Shown here one piece after another: positions 3,570 to 32,536 of a stretch of 64,000 nucleotides of DNA (position 1 is its first letter; each line of letters begins with the position of its first letter). Below the pieces are notes generated by a model that worked only from the letters and a program-made list of their open reading frames with translations, searched no databases and was not told the DNA's origin. The translations under genes were made by a program, and so were the position numbers. Source of the DNA: Pedobacter sp. (GTDB lineage: Bacteria > Desulfobacterota > Desulfuromonadia > Desulfuromonadales > Syntrophotaleaceae); the NCBI GenBank assembly GCA_050253415.1, contig JBFWJC010000002.1, positions 192,001-256,000 of the forward strand, in the 5' to 3' direction.

Positions 3570-4227
3570 TATCCCTGACCAGACAACCTTTTGCGATCCC
3601 GCCGAAGATGCGGAAAAAGTCGGAGAAATCCTGTTTTGCGATACGGCAGAAGATGCAAAAAAAGTTGGCGAACTGCGCTTTTGCGACAAGGATGAACAGG
3701 GCCAAACAGATTTACCAGGGGAATGCCAGGGGCTCGATGAACTGGAAATTGCAGGCTCGGAAACCCCCGGAGTTGGAACCATATACGGGGCATCGGGTGG
3801 ATTGCGCCCATACAGCTGGAGCATCAGCGCCGGGGTGATCGACGGAGGCGGCCGCGTCAACAGCCTCTCGGGCGCATGCGGAGCCGGATCGGTCACCGTC
3901 ACGGACGCATGCGGAAACACCGCAACTATGGATGTCCGGTTTCCCGACGGACAATGGGTGCTGAAAGAGTCGTGGACCAACCCATGTTACTGGTGGGCCG
4001 ATGAAAAATACCTACATACCGAGGAGGTTATATCCGGTCACTCAAAGCATCACATCAATTTTTCGCACAAGGGAGTCGGGATGGATTGCGCAGCATGCGA
4101 GTGTATCGCCGGCTGGTGCTGCGATAGTAGCACGACATTTTTTGATTATTTCGGAATTCCCGGTGACGGCACCGAGGTGAGCATCTACCCGTCACTGGCC
4201 TCTATTTACGCGTGGGAATGCCCATGA
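3562..4227 (+). CDS. Cys-rich phage hypothetical protein with N-terminal 15-aa tandem repeat
   Basis: ATG at 3562 overlaps the previous stop; repeat FCDxAEDAxKVGE; Ig-like 'GASGGLRPYSWS..GSVTVTDACG'. Confidence 0.7.
   Translation: MSDIPDQTTFCDPAEDAEKVGEILFCDTAEDAKKVGELRFCDKDEQGQTDLPGECQGLDELEIAGSETPGVGTIYGASGGLRPYSWSISAGVIDGGGRVNSLSGACGAGSVTVTDACGNTATMDVRFPDGQWVLKESWTNPCYWWADEKYLHTEEVISGHSKHHINFSHKGVGMDCAACECIAGWCCDSSTTFFDYFGIPGDGTEVSIYPSLASIYAWECP
3589..3687 (+). repeat. 45-bp in-frame tandem repeat (about 2.2 copies)
   Basis: ttttgcgatcccgccgaagatgcggaaaaagtcggagaa.. / ttttgcgatacggcagaagatgcaaaaaaagttggcgaa.. / ttttgcgac. Confidence 0.85.
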
Positions 4228-4751
4228 AAATTATAGCGGAGCGCATCGTTGACGGAGAGACAGCCGAGCAGATCGGCATCGATAAAAATTCGTACGGAAG
4301 CCGTCGCGAAACCATCGACCGCTATCTGGCGACGACATCTGGACTATTTGACCGGGAAGGATACCTCGAGTGGTTAAGATCCGACCCGGCAGGATCCGTC
4401 GGGGCAAGCCGCATCGTTAAGGCAAGACAGGGTGAGGTCCGGCATGCCACACGGAGACGTACCGGGTCTGGGTGCGGATGCGGCCGGAGTATGCCGCCAG
4501 GGTTGGTGCAGCGTGTCGGCAGTCTGATGACAACCCTCGGCAGGTGGGCGGTTGCAGGTTTTAGCTGCATGCCAAAAAAGGCATACCACGAACGGCTGAA
4601 AATCTGCGCGGCCTGCGAGGAATACACCTGGGCGAAAACATGCAGCGTTTGCGGATGCTTCATGCCGGCAAAAGCCAAACTCGCATCGATCGACTGTCCA
4701 AAACTTAAATGGCACGGCCCGCCGACAGAAGCAACCATCGCGGAGGTTTAA
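4224..4751 (+). CDS. Phage protein with C-terminal Cys cluster (DUF6171-like)
   Basis: 'RLKICAAC..CSVCGCFMPAKAKL..CP..KW'; ATGA overlap with upstream gene. Confidence 0.7.
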   Translation: MKIIAERIVDGETAEQIGIDKNSYGSRRETIDRYLATTSGLFDREGYLEWLRSDPAGSVGASRIVKARQGEVRHATRRRTGSGCGCGRSMPPGLVQRVGSLMTTLGRWAVAGFSCMPKKAYHERLKICAACEEYTWAKTCSVCGCFMPAKAKLASIDCPKLKWHGPPTEATIAEV

Positions 4752-4754
4752 CGA

Positions 4755-6971
4755 ATGGGCACTATCCTCGATTTACAGAGCGAGACAATCAAAGGGTTTG
4801 CATGCAGGCCTGACATTGGCCGCCTTTATGTTTTTAGCGCCAACGGCCTCGACGTCTACCGGACCAGCGACATGCAGCGCGTCGCCTGGGCCGGAATTAA
4901 TAACGTCACCTGCGGGACTGTCAACGATGCAGGCATCTACGTCGGCACAGATGACGCAGGTATGTATCATCTTCCGCTTACGATTAAAGACTGCGCCAAT
5001 GCCGATATGACGCCGATGTTTTGGCCAGGTGCGGCAGTAGTGTTGACAAGCTACAACATTTTGGCCATATCAGGCTGCGGATCCGCTCTGGCGATCGTCA
5101 CCGATTCGGAGTTTAAATATTTGCCGACCATAGGCTCGGCATACACGTACGCCGGATCACAAACTCCGGAATTATGCGCGATTAACGGTAACTATCTGGC
5201 ATGGGCGGATGCCAACACGATAAGCCTATCCGTCCTGCCAACAGCTGACTGGAGCGCTGCTGCGACCTCCATCACCGATGTAGCCAACCACCTGACATTT
5301 GAGGCAGGCACCGACAACTTGCTGATCAGCCACACGGAGGGGTTGATGGTCCTCGACTGCACCAACCCTGGCGGCTCCGTTGCGCCAACAACAGGCATGA
5401 TTAGCCACTACTCTATGGACAACATCACGGGGTCCACGTTAACCGACGACGCTGGCACACAGGATGGGACAATAACCGGAGCGACGCAGGTTGCCGGTCA
5501 CATCGGTCAGGCGTTGCAGTTTGCCGGCGGCGGTGACCACGTATCTGTCGCGCAAAACAGTGCCCACGAATTCGGCAGCGCGACAGATTTTAGTTATGCC
5601 TTGTGGTTTAAAACAAGCCAGTCTACCAGGGGTGACATCCTTGAAAACGGCTACAACGGAAATACCGGTAAATGGTCCGGTCTGTACGTGTATAACGGTA
5701 TTTTTGCCGGGTGTATTGACGACGGGACAAGCGCGGTCTTTGCTTCCGGGGCCACCAACGCCTGGACGATAAACGACGACGAATGGCACCTCGGGGTCGT
5801 GAACTTCGACCGCGACGGGAATCTGCAGCGATATATCGACGCCGAGGCTTATGGCGATCCATACGATATTAGTTCGGTTGGGGACATAACAAACACTGAA
5901 TACGGGATGCTGATCGGCATGAGGACAGGCACAACAGACTATTTCGTCGGGCAGATGGACGAAATCCGGATTTACAGTGGATTGTTGACCGTCGAAGAAA
6001 TCCAAGACATGTACCTCGAGGGTGTCGGCGGAGGCATCGAGTACGCGGCATCCCTCGGCACCGTCACAAATTGCCAGGCGGCATGGAAAGAAGGAGAGTA
6101 CATTGCGTACGGTACAAGCAATGGCGCCGATGGCGGCCGTTTTGGGCTTTTGCTGCTCGATAATGATCTCGTCGCCACCAGCAAGACGACCATCGCCGAT
6201 ACCGATACCGATGCTGTATGGTTATCTGCAGGGGCAACCGATGCCATCCACAATAACACCCTGGAACGATATAGGTTGGTGGCGGAGGTAAGCCCCGGAG
6301 CCAACGCCATAAACGTGCGGCGCGATTGGGCGTTATACGCGGAGATCACCGACAGCCTCGGCGGGATCCAGTCCGGCACGGTTGTGCTTACGATCAATGG
6401 CCAGACCGTCAGCCCGACGGTCAGCGCCATCACCGACGGCTACGCGGCAGCCTATACCCCGGGCAGCAGCAGCGGCTACGCACAGCGCATCACCGTCAAG
6501 CTCTCCGGCACCGATGCCGACGGCAACACCGTCAGCAAAACATGGTCATTTGTGACCGCCGCCGCGCCGACAGCCACAGCCACCGACACCACTCCTCCCA
6601 ACGTGGTCTGCAAGCGAAACATCGGCCTTGAAGACTCCGAGGCCGATGAACAGGTTGACGGCGTCAACGTCATCTGGCTCGACGACATCACCGGCCCGCT
6701 GATCGTCACCGACGCCCAGGCCGCCGCCGTCGGCACCGTCGCCATCGATGGCGTCACCTACCACCGCCACCGGCGCAGCGTACGTGTCGACCCGACCGAT
6801 GCAGGCGGCCTGCGGACTCGCGACCTGCAACAGGGGCAGGTCATCACCGTGACCTGCCCAGCCATCGGCATGACCGCGCAAAAATGCGAAGTGCTGGCGA
6901 TCCAGCGCAACCTCGACGAAACCGGCGAAATCACCTTCGATCTGCAGATCGCCTACTACGAAGCGGTGTAA
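4755..6971 (+). CDS. Phage tail protein with LamG/concanavalin-like domain and hub-like C-terminus, 738 aa
   Basis: LamG signature 'GHIGQALQF..FSYALWFKT..INDDEWH..YFVGQMDEIRIYSGLLTVEEI'. Confidence 0.75.
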   Translation: MGTILDLQSETIKGFACRPDIGRLYVFSANGLDVYRTSDMQRVAWAGINNVTCGTVNDAGIYVGTDDAGMYHLPLTIKDCANADMTPMFWPGAAVVLTSYNILAISGCGSALAIVTDSEFKYLPTIGSAYTYAGSQTPELCAINGNYLAWADANTISLSVLPTADWSAAATSITDVANHLTFEAGTDNLLISHTEGLMVLDCTNPGGSVAPTTGMISHYSMDNITGSTLTDDAGTQDGTITGATQVAGHIGQALQFAGGGDHVSVAQNSAHEFGSATDFSYALWFKTSQSTRGDILENGYNGNTGKWSGLYVYNGIFAGCIDDGTSAVFASGATNAWTINDDEWHLGVVNFDRDGNLQRYIDAEAYGDPYDISSVGDITNTEYGMLIGMRTGTTDYFVGQMDEIRIYSGLLTVEEIQDMYLEGVGGGIEYAASLGTVTNCQAAWKEGEYIAYGTSNGADGGRFGLLLLDNDLVATSKTTIADTDTDAVWLSAGATDAIHNNTLERYRLVAEVSPGANAINVRRDWALYAEITDSLGGIQSGTVVLTINGQTVSPTVSAITDGYAAAYTPGSSSGYAQRITVKLSGTDADGNTVSKTWSFVTAAAPTATATDTTPPNVVCKRNIGLEDSEADEQVDGVNVIWLDDITGPLIVTDAQAAAVGTVAIDGVTYHRHRRSVRVDPTDAGGLRTRDLQQGQVITVTCPAIGMTAQKCEVLAIQRNLDETGEITFDLQIAYYEAV

Positions 6972-21569: not shown

Positions 21570-23618
21570 TTAACGATTGTTGGGTGGAATGATGGCGTAC
21601 TCCTTCATCTTGCGGTATATGGTCGACCTGCTAAGGCCAATCTCCTTTTCCGCTTTGGAGATCTGCCACTTGTGTCTCTGCAGAGCTCCAATTATCACCT
21701 GGCGTTCGGCCTGTTTCACAGTACTCAGCTCGGAAATAATATCGTCCGCAACCGGCTTTGCCTCACTTGGGGGTAATTCGGTCACGACCTCTTCGATTAT
21801 AGCAGGCAGGGCCTGTTGATCAGGAACTTCCTCGGAGGAAACAACGATAATGTCGGGGGGCAGGTCAGCATAGGTAATGATGTTGTCATTACAAACCGCC
21901 AGAGCATATCGCATGGCATTGCGCAGTTGGCGGATATTGCCAGGCCAGGAATAGTTAACCAAAAACTGTATGGCGGCTTTGCTGATGGAAACGTCACCAC
22001 CCTGATCTTCCTCCTCAATAGTCAAGACATTTTTAATCAGCAGAGCTATATCCGAACGATGGCGCAAAGGAGGTAGTTCAAAGGAGATGCCATTAAGGCG
22101 ATAATAGAGGTCTTCGCGGAAAGTGCCGCTGGCCACCATGTCGAAGATATTGCGGTGTGTAGCACATATCACGTGTAAATTGACGGGAATCGGTGTCTCT
22201 CCACCTAATGGCATAACCTCGCGTTCCGCAAGCACTCGCAACAAGCGCGGTTGCAGACTGGCCGGCATATCGCCAATTTCATCGAGGAACAGAGTGCCGC
22301 CGTCCGCTTGCAGGATCTTGCCACGCATCCCCTTGCTGCGCGCGCCTGTAAAAGCCCCTTCCTTGTACCCGAACAGCTCACTTTCGATCAGTGACTCGGG
22401 GATCGATGCGCAGTTTACCGCGACAAATGGTTTTTTGGCCCGATGACTGGCGTTATGAATGGCCTTGGCAAACAGTTCCTTACCGCATCCTGTTTCGCCA
22501 TTCAGCAAAATCGGGATTGGCTTGTTCATGACCCGCTTCATACATTCCACCGCTATGCGGAGCTTGGGTTCCTCGCCGGCAAGATAATCGAGAGACACAG
22601 GTTCGCCCTGCCGGGGAATACGCCTTTTGGGCTGAGCCCTTTCTCTGACCTGGCGAGCAGGTCTCACCGGAATAGCCTGCGGACAGCGCAGAGAGACGAA
22701 CATCTCCCGCCCCGTTCTCCGAGTATGGATCGGCAGAAACAAACTGGAATGGGCAGCCTTTTCCTGCAGCCTTTCAAAATCGACATCAAAAACTTCATCA
22801 ATCTGTTGCCCCACCAGGCTACCGTCGACCTCCCGAGCCAAAGTTCTGTCTGCGACATGATCGACATTCAGCACTCGCCCGCTGCCGTCCAAAGTAATAA
22901 AACAATCCCCCCCCGTCACTTCAGCAAGCCGCCGTTCAAAGCTCAGCTTGAGAACCCATTGACCCTCGAACTGTCTGAGAAAATAGGCCCTTTCGATCAT
23001 ACGGGCTGTTTGCGTAACAAAATGCAGCGCGAGATATTGACTGTTTTTGGAGTTCGGAGAGCAAAGGGCTGTAACGTCTATCGAGCCCAGGGTTTTGCCA
23101 TTAGGACCGATGATCGGGGAGGTGGAGCAGGTCAAGTTCGCATACCTATACCGGAAATGCTCGCCATGGTGAACTGTGAAAGGTCTCTGTTCGACAATTG
23201 CCAAGCCGATACCGTTGGTTCCCTCATGCTGCTCATCCCAGACCGCGCCGAGCCAGGAGAGCCCAGTCCTTTTCCATTCCTCAACTTGAGGGTCGATGCC
23301 CCGAATATCTAAACTTACACCGTTGGCATCAGTCAAAATGGTCGCGTACCCGAGATCCTTTACTCGGCCATAGAGATGCTGTGCTCCAACCTTGGCGATA
23401 GGCAGCAAACCTTCTAAGGGCTGGGTATATTCTCGCAATTCTCTAGAGGTGAGGACTTGGACCTGCCTGTTCACGCTTGGATCGATACCATAGTGATGCA
23501 GACAGCGTTCCCAGGAAGTGGCAATAGGCGTTTCGTCCTTCTCCCCGCTAATCTTCCGATTGCCGGAGACACGGGAGATAATCCTTTCAACGTGGCTACG
23601 CACATGCTGTTCAGCCAT
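21570..23618 (-). CDS. GAF-domain sigma54-dependent activator (AcoR-like)
   Basis: 'IATSWERC', 'GTNGIG' GAF region; GETGCGKE, GAFTGA, FLDEIG; Fis-type HTH; RBS aggagg. Confidence 0.92.
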   Translation of the reverse strand: MAEQHVRSHVERIISRVSGNRKISGEKDETPIATSWERCLHHYGIDPSVNRQVQVLTSRELREYTQPLEGLLPIAKVGAQHLYGRVKDLGYATILTDANGVSLDIRGIDPQVEEWKRTGLSWLGAVWDEQHEGTNGIGLAIVEQRPFTVHHGEHFRYRYANLTCSTSPIIGPNGKTLGSIDVTALCSPNSKNSQYLALHFVTQTARMIERAYFLRQFEGQWVLKLSFERRLAEVTGGDCFITLDGSGRVLNVDHVADRTLAREVDGSLVGQQIDEVFDVDFERLQEKAAHSSLFLPIHTRRTGREMFVSLRCPQAIPVRPARQVRERAQPKRRIPRQGEPVSLDYLAGEEPKLRIAVECMKRVMNKPIPILLNGETGCGKELFAKAIHNASHRAKKPFVAVNCASIPESLIESELFGYKEGAFTGARSKGMRGKILQADGGTLFLDEIGDMPASLQPRLLRVLAEREVMPLGGETPIPVNLHVICATHRNIFDMVASGTFREDLYYRLNGISFELPPLRHRSDIALLIKNVLTIEEEDQGGDVSISKAAIQFLVNYSWPGNIRQLRNAMRYALAVCNDNIITYADLPPDIIVVSSEEVPDQQALPAIIEEVVTELPPSEAKPVADDIISELSTVKQAERQVIIGALQRHKWQISKAEKEIGLSRSTIYRKMKEYAIIPPNNR

Positions 23619-23959
23619 GCTGCCACCTCCTAGTGATGTTATCGACTGATTGAAATCTAACTGGTACATCTCACCTACACAAGTTCATTTATATTAGCAA
23701 AATAAGCGGTATATTCGCAACTTGAGGCACAATCTATAAAACGAATGTATGGACACCGACTTACTAGATACTCCCATTCTGTCGATGGTATCACCTTGCA
23801 AAATCAGCTTGGGAACGGTTGTTATTATAGCCGTGGCGGCGAATCGAAAAGGGCATAGACATTCACAATCTGGTTTTTCATCAAATTAAACTTGTTTAAA
23901 CTCTGCTAAGCAAAACCCCTGGCAGCATGGATGGTCTTGCCATAGTTTGGTTTTATCAC

Positions 23960-25841: not shown

Positions 25842-26161
25842 ATTGTTATAGCGGTCCTGGTTTTCTTGGACATTGATTTGGGGTAAAGTCCCCGTGTCCA
25901 AGGAGATTAATGATGACAACAAACAACAAGAACGAAACTGTCATAGGGCCTTTGGCCGAAGGACAGAGCTGGAGTGCTGTCCGCAAGCGTGAAGTGGTGC
26001 TGCGCATGTTGCGAGGCGAATCCGTTGATGCCTTGTCCCACGAATTGAATATCGAAATCTACCGTCTGGAGGAATGGCGGGAGAAAGCGTTAACCGGCAT
26101 CGATGACTCGCTGAAAAAACAGTGCCATTCGGGACACTCCCCATATTTCCAAAAATCATGA
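25842..26161 (+). mobile_element. Truncated insertion sequence (IS3-like OrfA HTH, ORF 25910-26161)
   Basis: 'WSAVRKREVVLRMLRGESVDALSHELNIEIYRLEEWREKAL' transposase-type HTH; CTTGGACA..TGTCCAAG hairpin over the RBS; no DDE ORF follows. Confidence 0.7.
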
Positions 26162-26176
26162 TTACCAGAACATCGA

Positions 26177-26209
26177 ACGGCCCAACCTGTTTCCCATAGG
26201 TTGGGCCGT
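26177..26209. terminator. Hairpin/terminator
   Basis: ACGGCCCAACCT..AGGTTGGGCCGT, 12-bp stem. Confidence 0.6.
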
Positions 26210-26705
26210 CTTATATTTTGTCTTAAATGAATTCTCGCTTTATCTAGGATTTATCAGTCATCAGGAAGCAAGTCTGATGGACTGGTTTCCGGCATTAACA
26301 GGGCGTTATTTTGGCAAAAATAAGACATCCCCACCAAATTGCTATCCCACTGTCCGATATCGAACCATTGCCATCTGCTGACGAAATCAACCAGAAGTAA
26401 CTTCATCTTCTCTCTGCCTCGGCGATCCTGCATCGGTGCCACAATCGTTTTGCTTCCCTGACCTGTTGGGGAAGGGTGAGTGCCGGACCATTCTAGTAAA
26501 CGACAGGGCTGGGGTGTTGTCCTTGTCGTCCATCATGAATTATTTGAATAATATAAAAAGTGTTGATTAATTTTGTGAGTAGATTGTAATGTTGTGTTCA
26601 GATCCTGACACCGCCTTACAGCAGCGCGCTTTCTGTCGGGAAAGGTTGGTTTATGGGTCGCCGGGAGAGGGTCTCCCGAACTTATACCTGCCAAAGGAGG
26701 CTTTT

Positions 26706-27020
26706 ATGGAAAGGAACATGCGTAAAAAAGTCAGTTCCACGCCAAGCATTGCCAAGTTGGCCCGCGATCTCGATAAGGTGCCTTGCAATCATCTGGTGGG
26801 GCGGGAGGTGATTGAACAGCAGATCGTTGATCTGGCCAGGGGTAAGATGGATGCAAGTTATTGTCAGAACTGGGAACGCTGCGATAACGGCTGGGGGAAG
26901 TGCACCCCTGACAACAAACTGTGGCTGGAGAAAATCCATGAATTGCGGGTCGACAAGGTGTTGACCGCCGCGGAAAAGAAGATACTCGCCAATCTGCAAA
27001 TGGATGCAAGGGTCAAATGA
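26706..27020 (+). CDS. Putative RiPP precursor peptide, 104 aa
   Basis: Perfect RBS AAGGAGG; central YCQNWERCDNGWGKC; stop overlaps the rSAM start (ATGA). Confidence 0.7.
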   Translation: MERNMRKKVSSTPSIAKLARDLDKVPCNHLVGREVIEQQIVDLARGKMDASYCQNWERCDNGWGKCTPDNKLWLEKIHELRVDKVLTAAEKKILANLQMDARVK

Positions 27021-28144
27021 GTCTGCCTCTCAACCTGATCCTCAAGCTGACCCGTGCCTGTTCATTGCGTTGCAGTTACTGTCATGACCGGGTGGCTCAA
27101 TCCGATGCGATGCCCTTTGAAGTGATGGCCCTGGCCATGGCTCGGGCCTTTGCCAGTGGTTACCGCGATTTTCGGTTTATCTGGCATGGGGGAGAGCCTC
27201 TGCTCGGTGGGCTGAGTCCGCTGCGCAAGGCGTTGGTTGTTCAACAGGAGCTGGCCGGTGCCGGTCAGCGGTATCAGAACAACCTGCAGACCAACGGGAT
27301 GCATTTGAACAAGGAGACGGCGCAGTTTCTCGGCGAGTTCGGCTTTCGGGTCGGCATCAGTCTCGATGGACCGGCGGCGGTACACGATGTGCAGCGTCCC
27401 ACCGTTGATGGCAAGCCCAGCCATCTGCGCATTCTCAAAGGGATCGATCGCTTGCGTCATCATGAGGTGCCGTTTGGCGTGATTTCGGTCCTGACTGAGC
27501 GCAGTCTGGCTATTGCTCCGATGGAATTGTTGCGGTTTTATCGGGACCACGAACTGTTCGATGTGTGTTTTTTGCCGGTGCGCGGCAATGCCCGGGCGAA
27601 GGGGCAAACCCTGGCTGCCGGCCGTTATTATGCGTATATGATGCAGCTGTTCGATGCCTGGCTCGAATTGGACGATCCCCGTATGCGGGTGCGGGAGTTT
27701 GGGGACTGGCTGCTGCTGTCCATGGGGTGGCCCGGTTCCCTATGCAGCTCTGCCGCAAGTTGCGTTGGCGGTACATTGAGTGTCGAACCGGAAGGAACGG
27801 TGTACCATTGTGACAAGTATGCCGGTGAGCCCGACTACTATTACGGCCAGCTGCAGGAACTCGATTTTGATCAGCTGCCCCATTCTGCAACCGCCTGTCG
27901 ATTGCGGGCCAAGGATATGGACCTGCCGTCGGTGTGCCTGGCTTGTGATTGGCTGAAGCATTGCGCCGGGGGCTGCAGCCATGATCGCCTGGTTGAAGGG
28001 CGGCACGGCCTGGCGGCCGACATCTGCCATCGCCAGAATCTGCTCGATCATGTCCGCTTGCGGACGGCGGAGCACCCTGCCGTTCGTAAATATGTCGCCA
28101 TGGCCGCCCAACAGGCCGAAACGCCTGACTGGGCTCCTTGTTGA
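27017..28144 (+). CDS. Radical SAM/SPASM enzyme (anSME-like), probable peptide maturase
   Basis: CSLRCSYC, WHGGEPLL, QTNG, GISLDGP; SPASM Cx5Cx15C..Cx2Cx5Cx3Cx16C. Confidence 0.93.
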   Translation: MSLPLNLILKLTRACSLRCSYCHDRVAQSDAMPFEVMALAMARAFASGYRDFRFIWHGGEPLLGGLSPLRKALVVQQELAGAGQRYQNNLQTNGMHLNKETAQFLGEFGFRVGISLDGPAAVHDVQRPTVDGKPSHLRILKGIDRLRHHEVPFGVISVLTERSLAIAPMELLRFYRDHELFDVCFLPVRGNARAKGQTLAAGRYYAYMMQLFDAWLELDDPRMRVREFGDWLLLSMGWPGSLCSSAASCVGGTLSVEPEGTVYHCDKYAGEPDYYYGQLQELDFDQLPHSATACRLRAKDMDLPSVCLACDWLKHCAGGCSHDRLVEGRHGLAADICHRQNLLDHVRLRTAEHPAVRKYVAMAAQQAETPDWAPC

Positions 28145-28231
28145 TGTTTGTCATGCCTGCTTACGCAGCATAAACAGTAAATGGGTTTCGCCGCTTCACT
28201 GCTCGCAACATTGATCGTCTGCATAACAATC

Positions 28232-28266
28232 AAAAAGGGCCGCAACATGATGTTGCGGCCCTTTTA
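28232..28266. terminator. Bidirectional terminator
   Basis: AAAAGGGCCGCAACA-tga-TGTTGCGGCCCTTTT between convergent genes. Confidence 0.9.
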
Positions 28267-28275
28267 TTTGCGGCA

Positions 28276-28668
28276 TCACTCCTTGGAGGTTGTTTCCCAG
28301 CGGACAAAAGGTTCGATCGTGTATTTTTCCTTTTGAACCTCCGGTTCTTTGGTGCTGGGCCACCAGTGAAAAACATGCAGACCTGTCTGATCGATGGGAT
28401 TGGAAGACAGGGTGCTCTGGTCGGTAAGGTCCATCGATTCATAACGCATCAACACCGGTTTGTCCGGGAAATGGTCGATTTCGATGATGTCGTCGAGATA
28501 GATCTCGTCGATGTCGTCAAAGGCATGGGTGCCGTTGCGGATCGCCATGATCTTATCGCGCATGGCCTTTACCGCTTTGTCTGTATTGTCAGCGGAAAGG
28601 AGCATGGTGAAGTAACCGTGTTTTTTATGATGATTTTCGTCGAAGGTAAAATGGGCCATGTATCTCAT
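28276..28668 (-). CDS. Hypothetical protein, 130 aa
   Basis: RBS aaggagg; globular composition; ends at the terminator. Confidence 0.75.
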   Translation of the reverse strand: MRYMAHFTFDENHHKKHGYFTMLLSADNTDKAVKAMRDKIMAIRNGTHAFDDIDEIYLDDIIEIDHFPDKPVLMRYESMDLTDQSTLSSNPIDQTGLHVFHWWPSTKEPEVQKEKYTIEPFVRWETTSKE

Positions 28669-28897
28669 ATCTTAACCTCCTTGTAACGCGGTGCTTCTTG
28701 CAGATCGGAAGCTTCAAGTTTGCGTATGTGCATATTTTACCGCAAACGACCGATGCAAGGGAAGCTGGCGAGAACGCGCGCGGCCCCGTTATAGCGCCAG
28801 GGCACTGGTCAGCGGCGCTAAAGCGGTTAAAATTAAAACCATCAAGCGATTTTTCGTGGCAATTCACTCTGTTCTGACCTTATTCAAGAGGTAGCTG

Positions 28898-30190
28898 ATG
28901 AATATCCTGATGGTCACCAACACCTTTACTCCTCATGTCGGCGGCGTGGCGCGCAGCGTGCAAAGTTATTGCGATGCCTTTCGCCAGCTTGGCCACAGGG
29001 TGCTGGTTATTGCGCCGCATTTTGAAGGCGCGCCTGACCACGAACCGGATGTGCTGCGTTTTCCGGCTATTGAGCACTTTCATCGAAGTGATTTTTCCGT
29101 GCCGTTGCCGGCCCCGGTCGGTTTGCAGCGCAGGCTTGACGAATTCGCCCCCGACATCGTTCACTCCCATCACCCTTTTCTGCTGGGCGATACGGCACTG
29201 CGTACCGCGGCACAACGGCAGCTGCCGATGTTGTTCACCCATCACACCATGTACGAGCGCTACACCCACTATCTGCCCATCGATTCGGAGCGGGTGCGGC
29301 GTTTTGCCATCGAATTGGCGGCCGGCTACTGCAATTTGTGCGATGCGGTGGTGGCGCCAAGCACTACCCTGGCCGACTGTTTGCGGTCCCGCGGGGTGCA
29401 GAGCCCTATCGAGGTCATCCCCACCGGCATCGATCCGCAACCGTTTGCACAGGCCGATGGCCCGGCTTTCCGGCGCAAGCTGGGTATCCCCGAAGAGGCC
29501 TTTTTGATCGGTTATCTTGGGCGGTTGTCGCCGGAGAAGAATCTTGCCTTTCTGGCCCGGGCGGTTGCCGGGTTTATGCAGCAACACCCCGGCACCCGGA
29601 TGTTGCTGGTCGGTGAAGGGCCTGCGAAGGATGATGTCCAAAGCATTTTCAGCGAATATCAGTTGTCCGATCGCCTGCATCTGGTCGGGCTTCTCGATCG
29701 CCCCGAACTCGCATCGGCCTACCGGGCCATGGATGGGTTCGTCTTCGCCTCGCAAAGCGAAACCCAGGGTATGGTACTGGCGGAGGCGATGGCGGCCGGT
29801 ACGCCGGTGATCGCCGTGGCAGCTCCGGGGGTGCGTGATATCGTGCGGGATGGGCATAACGGACGCCTGCTGGCCAAAGAAAAAACCGATGCGTTCATTG
29901 AGGCATTGCAGTGGTTGTTCGAACTGTCGTGCGAAGACCGGCAGCGCCTGCAAGCAGGGGCGTTGGAGACTTCCAGGGATTTCAGTATGTCCCGCAGTGC
30001 GGATCGCATGCTGGCTCTGTATCAGCGCCTGATATCCGGACATAACAAAGTGCCGTCTAATCACACACGCTGGCTGGCGGCGCGCCATCGCATGGAAGAG
30101 GAATGCAAAATTCTGCACAATATCACCCACGCACTGGCGGAAGCGCTGCGCGCCGAACCGGGATTGCAACCACGGGACAACAGGGAGTGA
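28898..30190 (+). CDS. Glycosyltransferase family 4
   Basis: 'MVTNTFTPHVGGVARSV', GRLSPEKN, SETQGMVLAEAMAAG. Confidence 0.93.
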   Translation: MNILMVTNTFTPHVGGVARSVQSYCDAFRQLGHRVLVIAPHFEGAPDHEPDVLRFPAIEHFHRSDFSVPLPAPVGLQRRLDEFAPDIVHSHHPFLLGDTALRTAAQRQLPMLFTHHTMYERYTHYLPIDSERVRRFAIELAAGYCNLCDAVVAPSTTLADCLRSRGVQSPIEVIPTGIDPQPFAQADGPAFRRKLGIPEEAFLIGYLGRLSPEKNLAFLARAVAGFMQQHPGTRMLLVGEGPAKDDVQSIFSEYQLSDRLHLVGLLDRPELASAYRAMDGFVFASQSETQGMVLAEAMAAGTPVIAVAAPGVRDIVRDGHNGRLLAKEKTDAFIEALQWLFELSCEDRQRLQAGALETSRDFSMSRSADRMLALYQRLISGHNKVPSNHTRWLAARHRMEEECKILHNITHALAEALRAEPGLQPRDNRE

Positions 30191-30852
30191 GCCCCCGCCG
30201 TTCAGAGTCCGTCCCATGGCGCGCCCGTCTGTTGGGTGCCATCGGCGCTTTCGTGTTGCGGTTGTGGTGTGCGTCGTGGCGCAAGCGGCTTGTCGGAGTC
30301 GAGCATCTCGATGCCTGTATCGCTGCCGGTCAGCATACCCTGGTGCTGTGCTGGCACGGTACTTATGTACCGCTGTTTACCTTGTTGCGCGGTCGGTCGG
30401 CTTGCATTCTTACCAACAGATCCCTGCGCGGCCAGGTTATTGCGCAGATCAGCCGCCGGTTTGGCTACGCCGCTCTGGGATTACCCGATGAGCAGGGGCG
30501 GCGGTTTCTGGCGGCCTTGCGGCAGGCCTTGGATGAACATACCACCTGGGGCACCGCGGCCGACGGTCCGTTGGGTCCCTGCCATCAGGTCAAACCGCCG
30601 CTGGTAAGTCTGGCGGCGCATTTCGGGTTTTCCGTGCAGTTGGTCGGGGTGGCGGCGCGCCATGCCTGGCGCATACATAGCCGTTGGGATCGCATGCTGT
30701 TGCCGTTGCCTTTTACCCGGGTCGGTATGGTTCTCAGCGAGCCGATCCGGTTGCCATCCACCATGGATAGAAGCATGGCGGCCCGGCAGGCTGAAACCCT
30801 GCAAAACATCATGCAGCAATGCACCATGGCTGCCCAGGATTTGATACGATAA
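30187..30852 (+). CDS. DUF374 / lysophospholipid acyltransferase family protein
   Basis: GTG overlapping the upstream stop; 'CWHG', 'ADGPLGP..VKP', 'SRWDRMLLPLPF'. Confidence 0.8.
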   Translation: MSPRRSESVPWRARLLGAIGAFVLRLWCASWRKRLVGVEHLDACIAAGQHTLVLCWHGTYVPLFTLLRGRSACILTNRSLRGQVIAQISRRFGYAALGLPDEQGRRFLAALRQALDEHTTWGTAADGPLGPCHQVKPPLVSLAAHFGFSVQLVGVAARHAWRIHSRWDRMLLPLPFTRVGMVLSEPIRLPSTMDRSMAARQAETLQNIMQQCTMAAQDLIR

Positions 30853-30892
30853 AGGCGTTGCACCCCATCAAACGTAGTGCCGAGGAGGCCTT

Positions 30893-32536
30893 ATGAAACA
30901 ACCCAGTACGATAAGCGAATACCTCATCAGCCGCCTGATTGATTATGGAGTCGGCCATGTCTTTGGCGTACCCGGCGATTATGTGCTGCAGTTTTACCAA
31001 CAACTGGAAAACAGTCCCCTGCGCGTCATCAACACTTGTGATGAGCAGGGTGCCGGTTTTGCGGCCGACGCCTATGCCCGACTGCGCGGTCTCGGCGTGG
31101 TCTGCATTACCTACTGCGTCGGCGGGCTCAAGATCGCCAATACCACCGCTCAGGCCTTTGCCGAGAAGTCGCCGCTGGTGGTGATCAGTGGTTCTCCGGG
31201 CTTGGGCGAGCGCCACCACAATCCGCTGTTGCACCATAAAGTGCGCGATTTCGACACCCAGCTCAACATCTTCCGGCATCTTACCGTGGCCGCCACCGAT
31301 CTGATCGATGTCGAAAATGCCTGCTGCGAGATCGACCGGGTACTGGCCGCCGCGGTTCGTCACAAACGACCGGTTTATATCGAGCTGCCCCGCGATCTGA
31401 CCGGGATCGTTTGCAGTTGTGCCCGCAACCCGCTGCCCCAGGCTTCGGGCAGCGATCCCCATGCCCTGCGGGAGGCGCTCGCCGAAGCGGTGCACAGGAT
31501 CAGCGATGCGAAGCGCCCGGTGCTTGTCGCCGGGGTTGAAATTCAACGCTTCGGTCTGCAAAAACCTTTCATGCAGCTGGTGGAAGCTACCGGCATCCCG
31601 TTTGCCACCACCCCGTTGAGCAAGTCGACCCTGTCCGAGGACCATCCCCTGTTTGTCGGCGTCTACGAAGGGGCGGTCGGCAAGGAGCAGACGCGCCAGA
31701 TCGTGGAACAAAGCGATTGCCTGCTGATGCTCGGTGCGTTCATGACCGATGTCAACCTTGGGATCTTCACCGCCAATTTGGATCAGGCTTTGACTGTTTC
31801 CTCCTCCAGCGATGGCAGTTCCATCGCCTTCCACCAATATCCCGACGTTTTGCTGGATGATTTTCTGTCCGGCCTGCTCGACCAGGATTTGCCGCAAAGG
31901 GCTCTGACTGTCAGTGAAACACCTGCAACGCCGCCAGCATTTGAGGCGCAGGATAAGCCCATCACCATTGCCCGCCTGTTCGAATATCTGGAAAGTTTCC
32001 TCGATAACCATATCGTGCTGTTGGCCGATCCCGGCGAAGCCATGTTTGCCGCCGCCGATCTGACCATCCGCCACCCGTCCGCCTTTCTCTCCCCGGCTTA
32101 CTACACCTCCATGGGGTTTGCGGTGCCCGGCGCCATCGGCGCCCAGCTTGCCCGCCCTGATCTGCGCCCCCTGGTACTGGTCGGCGACGGCGCTTTTCAG
32201 ATGACCGGCATGGAAATCTCCACCGCCGCCCGTTTTGGCCTGTCGCCGATCGTGGTGGTGCTCAACAACGGCGGCTACGGCACCGAACGGCCCATGACCG
32301 ATGGCGGGTTCAACGATATCCCCGCATGGCGCTACAGTCGATTGCCGGAGGTGATCGGAGCAGGCCAGGGTTTCGAGGTGTTTACCGAACAGGATTTCGA
32401 CCACGCCCTCCAGTCCGCCATGGAGCGTACCGACACACCGACTATCCTTGATGTGCATCTTGACCCCAACGATCAGTCGCCGGCGTTGAAACGTCTTACC
32501 GACGCTCTGGGCAAGAAGGTGAGGGGGGAAGCCTGA
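30893..32536 (+). CDS. TPP-dependent 2-keto acid decarboxylase (indolepyruvate/pyruvate decarboxylase family)
   Basis: FGVPGDY, CDEQGAGFAADAYAR, LLHH, GDGAFQMTGME..NN. Confidence 0.93.
   Translation: MKQPSTISEYLISRLIDYGVGHVFGVPGDYVLQFYQQLENSPLRVINTCDEQGAGFAADAYARLRGLGVVCITYCVGGLKIANTTAQAFAEKSPLVVISGSPGLGERHHNPLLHHKVRDFDTQLNIFRHLTVAATDLIDVENACCEIDRVLAAAVRHKRPVYIELPRDLTGIVCSCARNPLPQASGSDPHALREALAEAVHRISDAKRPVLVAGVEIQRFGLQKPFMQLVEATGIPFATTPLSKSTLSEDHPLFVGVYEGAVGKEQTRQIVEQSDCLLMLGAFMTDVNLGIFTANLDQALTVSSSSDGSSIAFHQYPDVLLDDFLSGLLDQDLPQRALTVSETPATPPAFEAQDKPITIARLFEYLESFLDNHIVLLADPGEAMFAAADLTIRHPSAFLSPAYYTSMGFAVPGAIGAQLARPDLRPLVLVGDGAFQMTGMEISTAARFGLSPIVVVLNNGGYGTERPMTDGGFNDIPAWRYSRLPEVIGAGQGFEVFTEQDFDHALQSAMERTDTPTILDVHLDPNDQSPALKRLTDALGKKVRGEA

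Follow-up and report, generated by a model that had tools for sequence, protein, structure and literature searches.

A candidate substrate/enzyme pair in a Pedobacter sp. genome: a small Cys/Trp protein and an adjoining radical SAM/SPASM enzyme that most likely make a cross-linked peptide or mini-protein

Introduction

The combination of a radical S-adenosylmethionine (SAM) enzyme of the SPASM type, acting as maturase, with an adjacent precursor bearing aromatic-x-basic motifs is already known among the peptides that are synthesized on ribosomes and modified after translation (RiPPs). In this work we have analysed a 64,000-nucleotide (nt) stretch of Pedobacter sp. DNA (contig JBFWJC010000002.1, positions 192,001 to 256,000; "the window" from here on), in which the gene of a 104-amino-acid (aa) protein, P0001, is followed by that of a 375-aa radical SAM/SPASM enzyme, P0002, and we conclude that the pair most likely makes a cross-linked peptide or mini-protein. 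New here are the clade to which the enzyme belongs, the family of the precursor, a Cys/Trp core in the middle of the protein, docking predicted through two helices, and a bare, mobile format of two genes. The databases and literature searched, core motif strings included, gave no description of either family, although the radical SAM compendium, triceptide and daropeptide papers have supplementary tables of precursors, outside this search, that could list the precursor family.

The closest described systems are those of the darobactin synthase DarE and of the triceptide synthases. DarE is a radical SAM/SPASM enzyme resembling the anaerobic sulfatase-maturating enzymes (anSMEs); it has no RiPP recognition element (RRE), suffices as a single enzyme and needs no dedicated protease (PMC9055067, PMC10705402), darobactin being released by host proteases (PMC9055067). 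It makes a Trp-Lys C-C link on W-x-K and a Trp-Arg C-C link on W-x-R, the latter in a natural Yersinia precursor and in the W3R variant of DarA (PMC9055067, PMC10705402), and it forms an ether only if the third residue of the motif is aromatic (PMC10705402). The triceptide synthases (XyeB/XncB, GrrM/OscB, FxsB, YhhB, AmcB, HtkB, ChlB) are radical SAM/SPASM enzymes too, which act on aromatic-X-X motifs, often on several in one precursor, and join a carbon of the aromatic ring to C-beta of the residue in third place; this residue is commonly basic (HTK, WSK, FAR, YDR) (PMC11499958; 10.1101/2024.12.16.628070). Sequence does not reveal function in the poorly charted region that separates sulfatase maturases from darobactin-type synthases (PMC10288494).

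Like DarE, P0002 is an anSME-like radical SAM/SPASM enzyme without RRE, and the P0001 core contains the W-x-K/R motif, on which a bond is proposed by analogy. As with the triceptides, conserved motifs, namely YCQ, W-x-R and W-x-[KQ], which occur together in 35 of the 36 members of the family, stand in an open reading frame (ORF) that adjoins the enzyme gene in all eight loci compared. The differences are also clear. P0002 lacks the N-terminal extension of about 60 residues that DarE requires for leader binding (PMC10705402), and matches the DarE profile from position 75; P0001 has no W-x-W and no aromatic residue two places after Y52, W56 or W63; its core lies mid-protein between two conserved helices, has three Cys and is followed by 38 residues, in contrast to the 3 of the DarA follower; and no DarBCD-type transporters stand at the pair. 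Xenorceptide clusters have a protease, exporters and a Gly-Gly leader (10.1101/2024.12.16.628070), none of which the pair has, and a Cys-rich core with a docking follower helix is not among the features given for triceptides in the available text of PMC11499958 and 10.1101/2024.12.16.628070.

A small protein gene coupled to a radical SAM/SPASM gene

The P0001 gene (26706..27020) ends within the start of the P0002 gene (27017..28144), the TGA of the first and the ATG of the second sharing an ATGA, a 4-nt overlap (coordinates are those of the window, on the + strand unless noted). A Shine-Dalgarno sequence, AAAGGAGG, can be read at 26693..26700, 5 nt 5' of the P0001 ATG. The original prediction, made from this DNA alone, had described the ORF with its ribosome-binding site and overlapping stop just so. 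A longer ORF of 143 aa from 26589 was considered and is disfavoured, since the N-termini of the homologues match the M-E-[RK] of the 26706 start.

P0001 is encoded once in the genome, with no other member of its family there, and neither it nor its remote homologues have a Pfam or NCBIfam match. A search of 5.8 billion proteins gave 32 homologues with 55-93% identity and, bar one fragment, about 100-118 aa in length, and three remote ones (P0155, P0156 and P0158) came from a word-free profile search of 1.84 billion representatives; four other candidates (P0157 and P0159-P0161), repetitive proteins matched in 4-11 stretches, were discarded as spurious. No fused or longer forms were seen among the homologues searched. 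A profile search of the PDB returned chance-level matches only (E 0.2 or worse), and the ESM Atlas holds the P0001 sequence with no usable neighbour. Against its counterpart in the Desulfuromonas-type locus L007, P0001 has a nonsynonymous divergence (dN) of 0.154 and a synonymous divergence (dS) of 2.1 in the + frame, and in the other frames dN/dS is near or above 1, save one antisense frame at about 0.25; by this comparison the ORF is a real gene under purifying selection.

The proposed modification sites lie in the core Y52-C-Q-N-W56-E-R58-C59-D-N-G-W63-G-K65-C66 (26859..26903), where the W-x-[RK]-C unit had been predicted twice at a spacing of seven residues and is indeed found so: W-E-R-C and W-G-K-C start 7 residues apart, and 8 apart in P0155. 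Of the 36 family members, 35 have the motif Y-C-Q-x-W-x-R-C-x(2-5)-W-x-[KQ]-C, the exception being the truncated P0034, and in the 35-row alignment L18, I40, L43, Y52, C53, Q54, W56, R58, C59, W63, C66, E90 and L97 are invariant. Thus, W56-x-R58 is invariant and W63-x-K65 nearly so. C27, C53, C59, C66 and H29 are candidate metal ligands, and acidic residues (D49, E/D57, D69) stand near the core. Two remote homologues depart from this pattern: P0156 lacks the T-P-D after C66 and carries additional Cys in its core, and P0158, a database protein, has a signal-peptide-like hydrophobic N-terminus in place of the basic N-terminus and of C27-x-H29, and W-G-Q for W-G-K.

The small ORF stands immediately 5' of the radical SAM gene in 8/8 loci, at gaps of -4 to +2 nt and in four bacterial lineages; the loci are the window and L006-L012, from Pelobacter sp. 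UBA6812, Desulfuromonas sp. CSMB_57, four Thiohalomonadaceae metagenome-assembled genomes (MAGs) and a Desulfobacteraceae MAG. A further locus, L013, proved to be a 19-residue chance match with neither gene present. No other neighbour is common across the lineages of these eight loci, and the pair is accompanied by no conserved protease or transporter/exporter, in line with what had been predicted for the window and unlike the usual RiPP cluster. Between distant lineages the small protein keeps 62-69% identity and the enzyme 52-54%. RiPP precursors are not usually more conserved than their enzymes.

Within the genus the distribution of the pair is patchy. Of 30 relatives searched, two genomes of the same genus gave an orthologue (in one case a partial one, where a contig ends), as did a genome from a different genus of the family, and four further same-genus genomes, 90-100% complete, gave none; the 400 genomes sampled from the phylum gave no other orthologue, the best score being 164 bits vs 883 for the self match. 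The DNA of a carrier (G406) aligns to the window from 26450 to 32521, whereas that of non-carriers aligns only from 28804 (G405 and G404) or from 28295 (G403). The pair is therefore a 1.8-kb indel, a presence/absence unit whose limits in same-genus genomes are 26450..28270.

Placement of the enzyme

P0002 has the Pfam domains Radical_SAM and SPASM, no PqqD/RRE domain and no N-terminal extension. Its radical SAM motif, C15-x3-C19-x2-C22 (27059..27082), lies at the extreme N-terminus, and its SPASM region (27743..28027) has the eight Cys for two auxiliary 4Fe-4S clusters and the dipeptide C265-D266: Cys 243, 249, 265, 307, 310, 316, 320 and 337 align with the auxiliary-cluster Cys of anSMEcpe (4K37). 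The earlier reading of an enzyme that begins directly at its CxxxCxxC domain and has the full SPASM Cys set is thereby borne out.

All 68 NCBIfam matches of P0002 are under their curated cut-offs. The top hidden Markov model (HMM) is that of the anSMEs (TIGR03942, 207.9 bits for a cut-off of 349.45), and next come DarW (NF041300, 200.6/650), DynA (NF041298, 194.3/450) and DarE (NF038005, 174.8/650). Lower scores are given by the triceptide models YhhB (125.4/445), GrrM/OscB (122.6/310), AmcB (108/425), FxsB (106.5/370) and XyeB (49.8/450), so that the likeness to XyeB that had been put forward is a poor one, and by the maturase models PapB (NF047865, 87.6/340), QhpD-type (TIGR03906, 70/453) and SCIFF (TIGR03974, 60.9/425). 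The closest solved structures are anSMEcpe 4K37 (112 bits) and then the triceptide synthase ChlB 9GM3 (79.9 bits). A search for defence systems with PADLOC gave only a generic radical SAM similarity to pVip (27.5 bits), and this reading was dropped.

The database relatives of P0002 fall into three groups, namely orthologues of 45-90% identity, a thin set of 30-37% and many true anSMEs. We labelled 81 of them by NCBIfam and built a maximum-likelihood tree of 120 rows (quick IQ-TREE run, midpoint root, support by the Shimodaira-Hasegawa-like approximate likelihood ratio test, SH-aLRT, only). The P0002 clade consists of 21 orthologue-labelled rows, P0002 itself among them, and of two unlabelled ones, P0056 within the group (SH-aLRT 98) and P0059 next to it (SH-aLRT 87). 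Its sister clade (SH-aLRT 98) has 14 rows, of which 7 are DarW-like, a label that means the best sub-threshold match, 6 are unlabelled and 1 is nearest to anSME; the labelled members score best, below cut-off, to the DarW or DarE models. No paper on DarW was found in our literature search. P0002 does not cluster with the true sulfatase maturases, since it lies outside the 55-row clade (SH-aLRT 99) that contains all 42 HMM-confirmed anSMEs of the tree.

Could P0002 nevertheless be an ordinary anSME beside an unrelated small gene? The top model and the closest solved structure are both anSMEs, and P0002 shares with the anSMEs (structure 4K37) the fold class, length, three-cluster Cys pattern, active-site C-D dipeptide and, presumably, a protein rather than a short peptide as substrate. 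However, the score of 207.9 bits is far under the cut-off, the clade is separate, residues 34, 38 and 79 belong to a surface that is charged in anSMEs and hydrophobic in P0002, and in all eight loci the enzyme gene comes with the small ORF directly before it. As had been noted before, the window has no sulfatase gene. Only two proteins of the genome, which is rated 100% complete, pass the Pfam cut-off for PF00884; their genes lie on this contig at distances of about 190 and 277 kb. Both start with long hydrophobic stretches that resemble membrane anchors by eye, and neither has an FGly-type (formylglycine-type) motif (C/S-x-P/A-x-R) near the start of the Sulfatase domain, SVPER (and in L044 also SPAER) being found elsewhere in them. 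Because neither protein shows such a motif, a sulfatase-maturase role for P0002 looks very unlikely, and we consider that an anSME placed by accident next to the small gene is extremely improbable.

Other SPASM systems are more distant. Sactisynthases typically carry an N-terminal RRE/PqqD domain. Unlike the sacti- and ranthipeptide maturases, P0002 has no PqqD domain and stays under the respective cut-offs (60.9/425 and 87.6/340). In the QhpD/QhpC system a SPASM enzyme, which has an N-terminal extension, cross-links a small Cys/Trp-containing protein that stays a protein; P0002 differs from it in its low TIGR03906 score, and there are no dehydrogenase subunits or QhpE/G genes nearby.

Since the curated peptide-maturase models nearest to P0002 are DarW, DynA and DarE, a daropeptide-like or mixed chemistry has to be weighed, in which the core would receive ether (C-O-C), C-N or Trp-Cys links and not plain Trp-Lys/Arg C-C bonds. 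Such bonds have precedents, DarE forming ethers and DynA-type enzymes C-N links (PMC10288494, PMC10705402). An ether forms only where position 3 of the motif is aromatic (PMC10705402), but the P0001 core has Q, R and K there, and we regard this chemistry as improbable.

Predicted docking of the substrate on the enzyme

For the co-fold of P0001 and P0002 each protein was given its own alignment, and SAM and three 4Fe-4S clusters were added as ligands. The interface score (interaction prediction score from aligned errors, ipSAE) was 0.60, 0.61 and 0.72 in the three runs (median 0.61) and 0.00 in each of the three controls. At least 59% of contacts are common to the runs, and the predicted local distance difference test (pLDDT) of the partner is 53-61. 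The mark set for this tool is reached by 116 of 157 solved complexes and by 2 of 215 mismatched pairs, counts that are only approximate here because own alignments and ligands were used. The model thus supports the binding of P0001 to P0002.

In the model the main docking element is a follower helix, residues 85-101, VLTAAEKKILANLQMDA (26958..27008), predicted to be held by the P0002 surface formed by residues 34-46 and 70-79 (27116..27253): the contacts of lowest error run from P0001 residues 86, 90, 93, 94 and 97 to P0002 residues 34, 38, 39, 42, 71 and 74-79. Next come contacts of the leader, P0001 residues 34, 35 and 40, with P0002 residues about 215-232. They belong to a nearly invariant helix, residues 30-43, LVGREVIEQQIVDL (26793..26834), predicted to dock on enzyme residues 215-233. 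W56 is also within the confident interface. The holding surface is conserved in the P0002 clade (F34 23/23, A38 22/23, K71 23/23), whereas in the 42 true anSMEs columns 34, 38 and 71 are E/D, E and mixed R/K/Q/T, and L39 and L79 are mostly R and H.

We propose that this two-helix docking replaces the RRE, or the N-terminal extension used by DarE. If both flanking helices dock as modelled, the conservation of leader and follower is explained, and a mid-protein core with a long follower, which had seemed to fit no known family, would make sense. These helices with their named contact residues offer a testable alternative to the RRE and, if confirmed, a portable recognition tag for engineering.

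Related pairs in the sister clade

A metagenome scan with the generic patterns IWHGGEPL and FxVGVSLDGP gave at least 80 loci of related radical SAM enzymes, about 29-40% identical to P0053, and among the matches listed the upstream ORFs of 29 loci (L046-L074) were read by eye. Contigs of the divergent members of the P0001 family were not among the matches listed. We also searched an HMM of the follower region against the 3321 ORFs of 109 loci (80 metagenome loci and the 29 phylum loci L014-L042). Its top four matches were the ORFs just 5' of the radical SAM gene in L047, L064, L056 and L046 (E 0.0011, 0.013, 0.019 and 1.1), all of them at the ORF C-terminus, and the enzymes of L046, L047, L050, L051, L056 and L064 best match sister-clade members. 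The common follower motif is [LF]-[TSDN]-x-x-E-x-x-[ILV]-[ILVM]-x-x-L-[KQR], with E90 and L97 invariant also in the sister small ORFs, and in alignments the leader pattern is shared too. These ORFs have no Pfam or NCBIfam match.

The cores of the sister small ORFs are Cys-free (L046 GWEKNWLNLIVWDRNW; L047 GWDKSWLNLIIWDKSW; L051 WLRVWIRFWLRV), and they are rich in W-x-[KR] motifs: WEK/WDR, WDK/WDK, WLR/WIR/WLR, WLR/WLK and WRR. Of the 21 Trp in eight sister ORFs, 10 are followed by K or R at +2, against a K+R background of 0.134 (binomial 1.6e-4, a rough value as the loci are not independent of each other). Some small ORFs go without the motif: the proximal ones of L050, L056 and L064 have the helices and no W-x-[KR] (0/3 Trp). 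In L050 (20-578) and L064 (2456-2982) two tandem paralogous small ORFs precede the enzyme gene, the distal one with the helices and a C-terminal GG-V-WLR...WLK or GG-WRR, the proximal one with the helices and no evident core; they may represent a split into substrate and docking partner. Taken together, these alignments indicate that the common denominator of the wider clade is Trp-x-Lys/Arg and not Cys.

This bears on a second explanation, in which pair and docking are the same but the enzyme acts on Cys, making thioethers from Cys-S to C-alpha/beta/gamma (sacti-/ranthipeptide-like, or Cys-Asp/Glu as in QhpD) or converting Cys to formylglycine, while the Trp and basic residues serve recognition or the function of the product. 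The invariance of C53, C59 and C66 in 35 sequences, the extra core Cys of P0156, the acidic residues near the core, the anSME as best single HMM and best solved structure, and the retained C265-D266 all agree with it, and DarE can turn Ser into formylglycine (PMC10705402). However, the sister partners with both helices have Cys-free cores, so that Cys chemistry cannot be the common reaction of the clade, and the models of thioether maturases (SCIFF, PapB, QhpD-type) score far lower. We also considered C66-[TS]-P-D-x-[KR] as a sulfatase-like CxPxR site and rejected it, since the basic residue is at +5 and not at +4 and the stretch is lost in P0156. On balance we find a Cys-directed reaction unlikely.

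It could also be that the small protein is an accessory, for example an electron donor with a Cys4 iron-sulfur or zinc site, or a docking protein that acts like a chaperone, and that the true substrate is encoded elsewhere. C27, C53, C59 and C66 with H29 could bind metal, the small protein is better conserved than the enzyme across distant lineages, and the L050/L064 arrangement suggests that helix-only partners may exist. But the sister-clade partners are Cys-free, so electron donation is not the conserved role; no second conserved gene is present in the eight loci, the genome has no second copy or other member of the family, and W56 is within the confident interface. An accessory role is accordingly rated as quite improbable.

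Two of the sister pairs are bare pairs next to mobility genes: L046 is flanked by a tyrosine recombinase (Phage_integrase and SAM-like N domain; 538-1515, - strand) and L047 by a DDE transposase (3971-4984, + strand), which suggests, from gene content, a cassette-like mobility. A different group of small ORFs lies 5' of related radical SAM/SPASM genes in ten metagenome loci (L048, L049, L053, L055, L057 and L059-L063); their leader is nearly identical (FRDELEEVWVPKD.GELEGLLLTIQNEPGKKILKHKIQQ) and their C-terminal cores are hypervariable and rich in W, Y and D, so that they look like a separate precursor family with diversified cores.

Proposed chemistry and product

We propose that helix-docked P0001 receives Trp-to-Arg/Lys, and perhaps Tyr-to-Gln, C-C cyclophanes, with the Cys serving the product, a proposal that we regard as plausible and about evenly balanced. 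P0001 would be translated together with P0002, the two genes being a self-sufficient substrate/enzyme pair. The leader helix (30-43) would lie against P0002 residues 215-233 and the follower helix (85-101, LTxxExxxLxxL[KQ]) on the hydrophobic patch F34/A38/L39/K71/L79, and in this way the loop Y52...C66 between them would be led to the active site. The 5'-deoxyadenosyl radical would there take the C-beta hydrogen of R58 and K65 (possibly also of Q54), and each carbon radical would add to the indole, or phenol, two residues upstream, the auxiliary clusters accepting the electron. The outcome would be C-C cyclophanes of three residues, one at W56-R58, one at W63-K65 and perhaps one at Y52-Q54, each with a change of -2 Da. 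The three or four invariant Cys would not be the target of the enzyme and could form a metal/redox site or disulfides on a rigid cross-linked scaffold. The spacing of Y-C-Q-N-W-E-R, aromatic-x-x-N-W-x-x, is the same as that of WEK-N-WLN in L046. As for the Trp-Arg link, its precedent is DarE (PMC9055067, PMC10705402) rather than the xenorceptides: the NWER core ascribed to the latter in the original prediction was not seen, the available text of 10.1101/2024.12.16.628070 giving WVN/FAR/WSK.

Several observations weigh against this proposal. We infer the cyclophane chemistry by analogy, and the tree that places P0002 has no protein above the DarE, DarW or DynA cut-offs. Cys thioethers are frequent products of SPASM enzymes. 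The three Cys of the core equal the Trp in invariance, and a model with cyclophanes only does not need them. D266, which we take to be the equivalent of the catalytic Asp of anSMEcpe, is retained in 23/23 members of the clade, so that an anSME-like oxidation is conceivable; DarE itself oxidises Ser to formylglycine in variants (PMC10705402). K65 is replaced by Q in P0158, and the proximal ORFs mentioned above lack W-x-[KR]. In the co-fold W56 is the sole core residue among the confident contacts, followed by 67-74, so the core is barely included, and the AlphaFold2 monomer model of P0001 is poor (pLDDT 46.9, with helix 33-44 at low confidence).

What is the fate of the product? It may remain a cytoplasmic mini-protein, since the pair has neither protease nor exporter as a constant companion and conservation is higher in the small protein than in the enzyme. 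The missing protease and exporter do not exclude a released peptide, because host proteases suffice for darobactin, and the signal-peptide-like N-terminus of P0158 also speaks against a firm choice. A core that is nearly unchanged across distant lineages, with no export genes, points to a cellular function, such as that of a metal/redox mini-protein, rather than to a weapon. To our knowledge, this would be rare among radical SAM-modified peptides. A more far-reaching idea, which we consider decidedly unlikely as a whole, is that the product is a cytoplasmic enzyme-stapled mini-protein or protein-derived cofactor, in which two or three stacked cyclophanes (YCQ, WxR, WGK) would rigidify the 15-residue loop and the Cys, with C27/H29, would form a metal/redox site; the pair would then belong to a wider, undescribed superfamily of mobile cassettes with one or two small ORFs and an RRE-less radical SAM/SPASM enzyme that reads its substrates through two helices, the core lying between or after them. 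To the field of radical SAM cyclophanes and RiPPs the pair would contribute a precursor family and an enzyme clade, both of them new, between the sulfatase maturases and the darobactin-type synthases, and as a minimal system of two genes in 1.8 kb it is simple and cheap to test.

Genomic surroundings

In the window the neighbours of the pair are genes of a VOC protein, an insertion sequence (IS)-like fragment, a 130-aa protein and a GT4 glycosyltransferase. The end of the unit had been placed at a terminator, and a 15-bp G+C-rich hairpin is indeed present at 28233..28265, between the radical SAM gene and the convergent 130-aa gene. It is given on the - strand in the scan listing, and by eye the + strand has the G+C core and then TTTTATTT; since this T-run follows the hairpin on the + strand too, the hairpin can terminate both convergent genes. 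The 130-aa protein (28276-28668, - strand) has no Pfam, NCBIfam or PADLOC match and is conserved in Pelobacter sp. UBA6812 (L006) and in G403; as G403 is a genome without the module, this gene is not part of the pair. On the 5' side, a consensus scan gave a weak sigma-70-like promoter candidate, TTGTCG-18-AATAAT (9/12), at 26523..26552, which falls within the stretch common to the window and G406. About 3 kb upstream, outside the indel, a 699-aa sigma-54-dependent activator is encoded (21570-23669, - strand) that is not conserved with the pair.

In the Thiohalomonadaceae loci (L008-L011) the pair stands amid oxidative-stress-type genes, for a Redoxin peroxiredoxin, a Dps/ferritin, a Prx-glutaredoxin fusion and a LysR regulator, and a conserved 186-202-aa protein without family is encoded directly downstream on the same strand. 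This context is a weak hint that the pair has a redox or metal role inside the cell, and it counts as one observation, the four genomes being related to each other. In the Desulfobacteraceae locus an unrelated gene for a PqqD-fused radical SAM protein of 587 aa (L012:3565-5328, - strand) lies about 1.6 kb upstream on the opposite strand.

No RNA data set containing the locus was listed in a search of sequencing runs. Twenty-four short contigs from four sequencing runs of one study, labelled RNA-Seq and probably DNA, match the locus; two of them span the P0001/P0002 junction and have no bearing on expression. They are mostly 90-99% alike, with 6/24 below 90%, and derive for this reason from relatives. 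Finally, an 83-aa IS-like ORF fragment without family match lies upstream of the module (25910-26161), and the adjoining stretch of about 26124-26300, with a hairpin at 26177-26209, matches many separate sites at 78-82% identity in four same-genus genomes and looks like a small multi-copy repeat or miniature inverted-repeat transposable element (MITE) at the left edge of the module.

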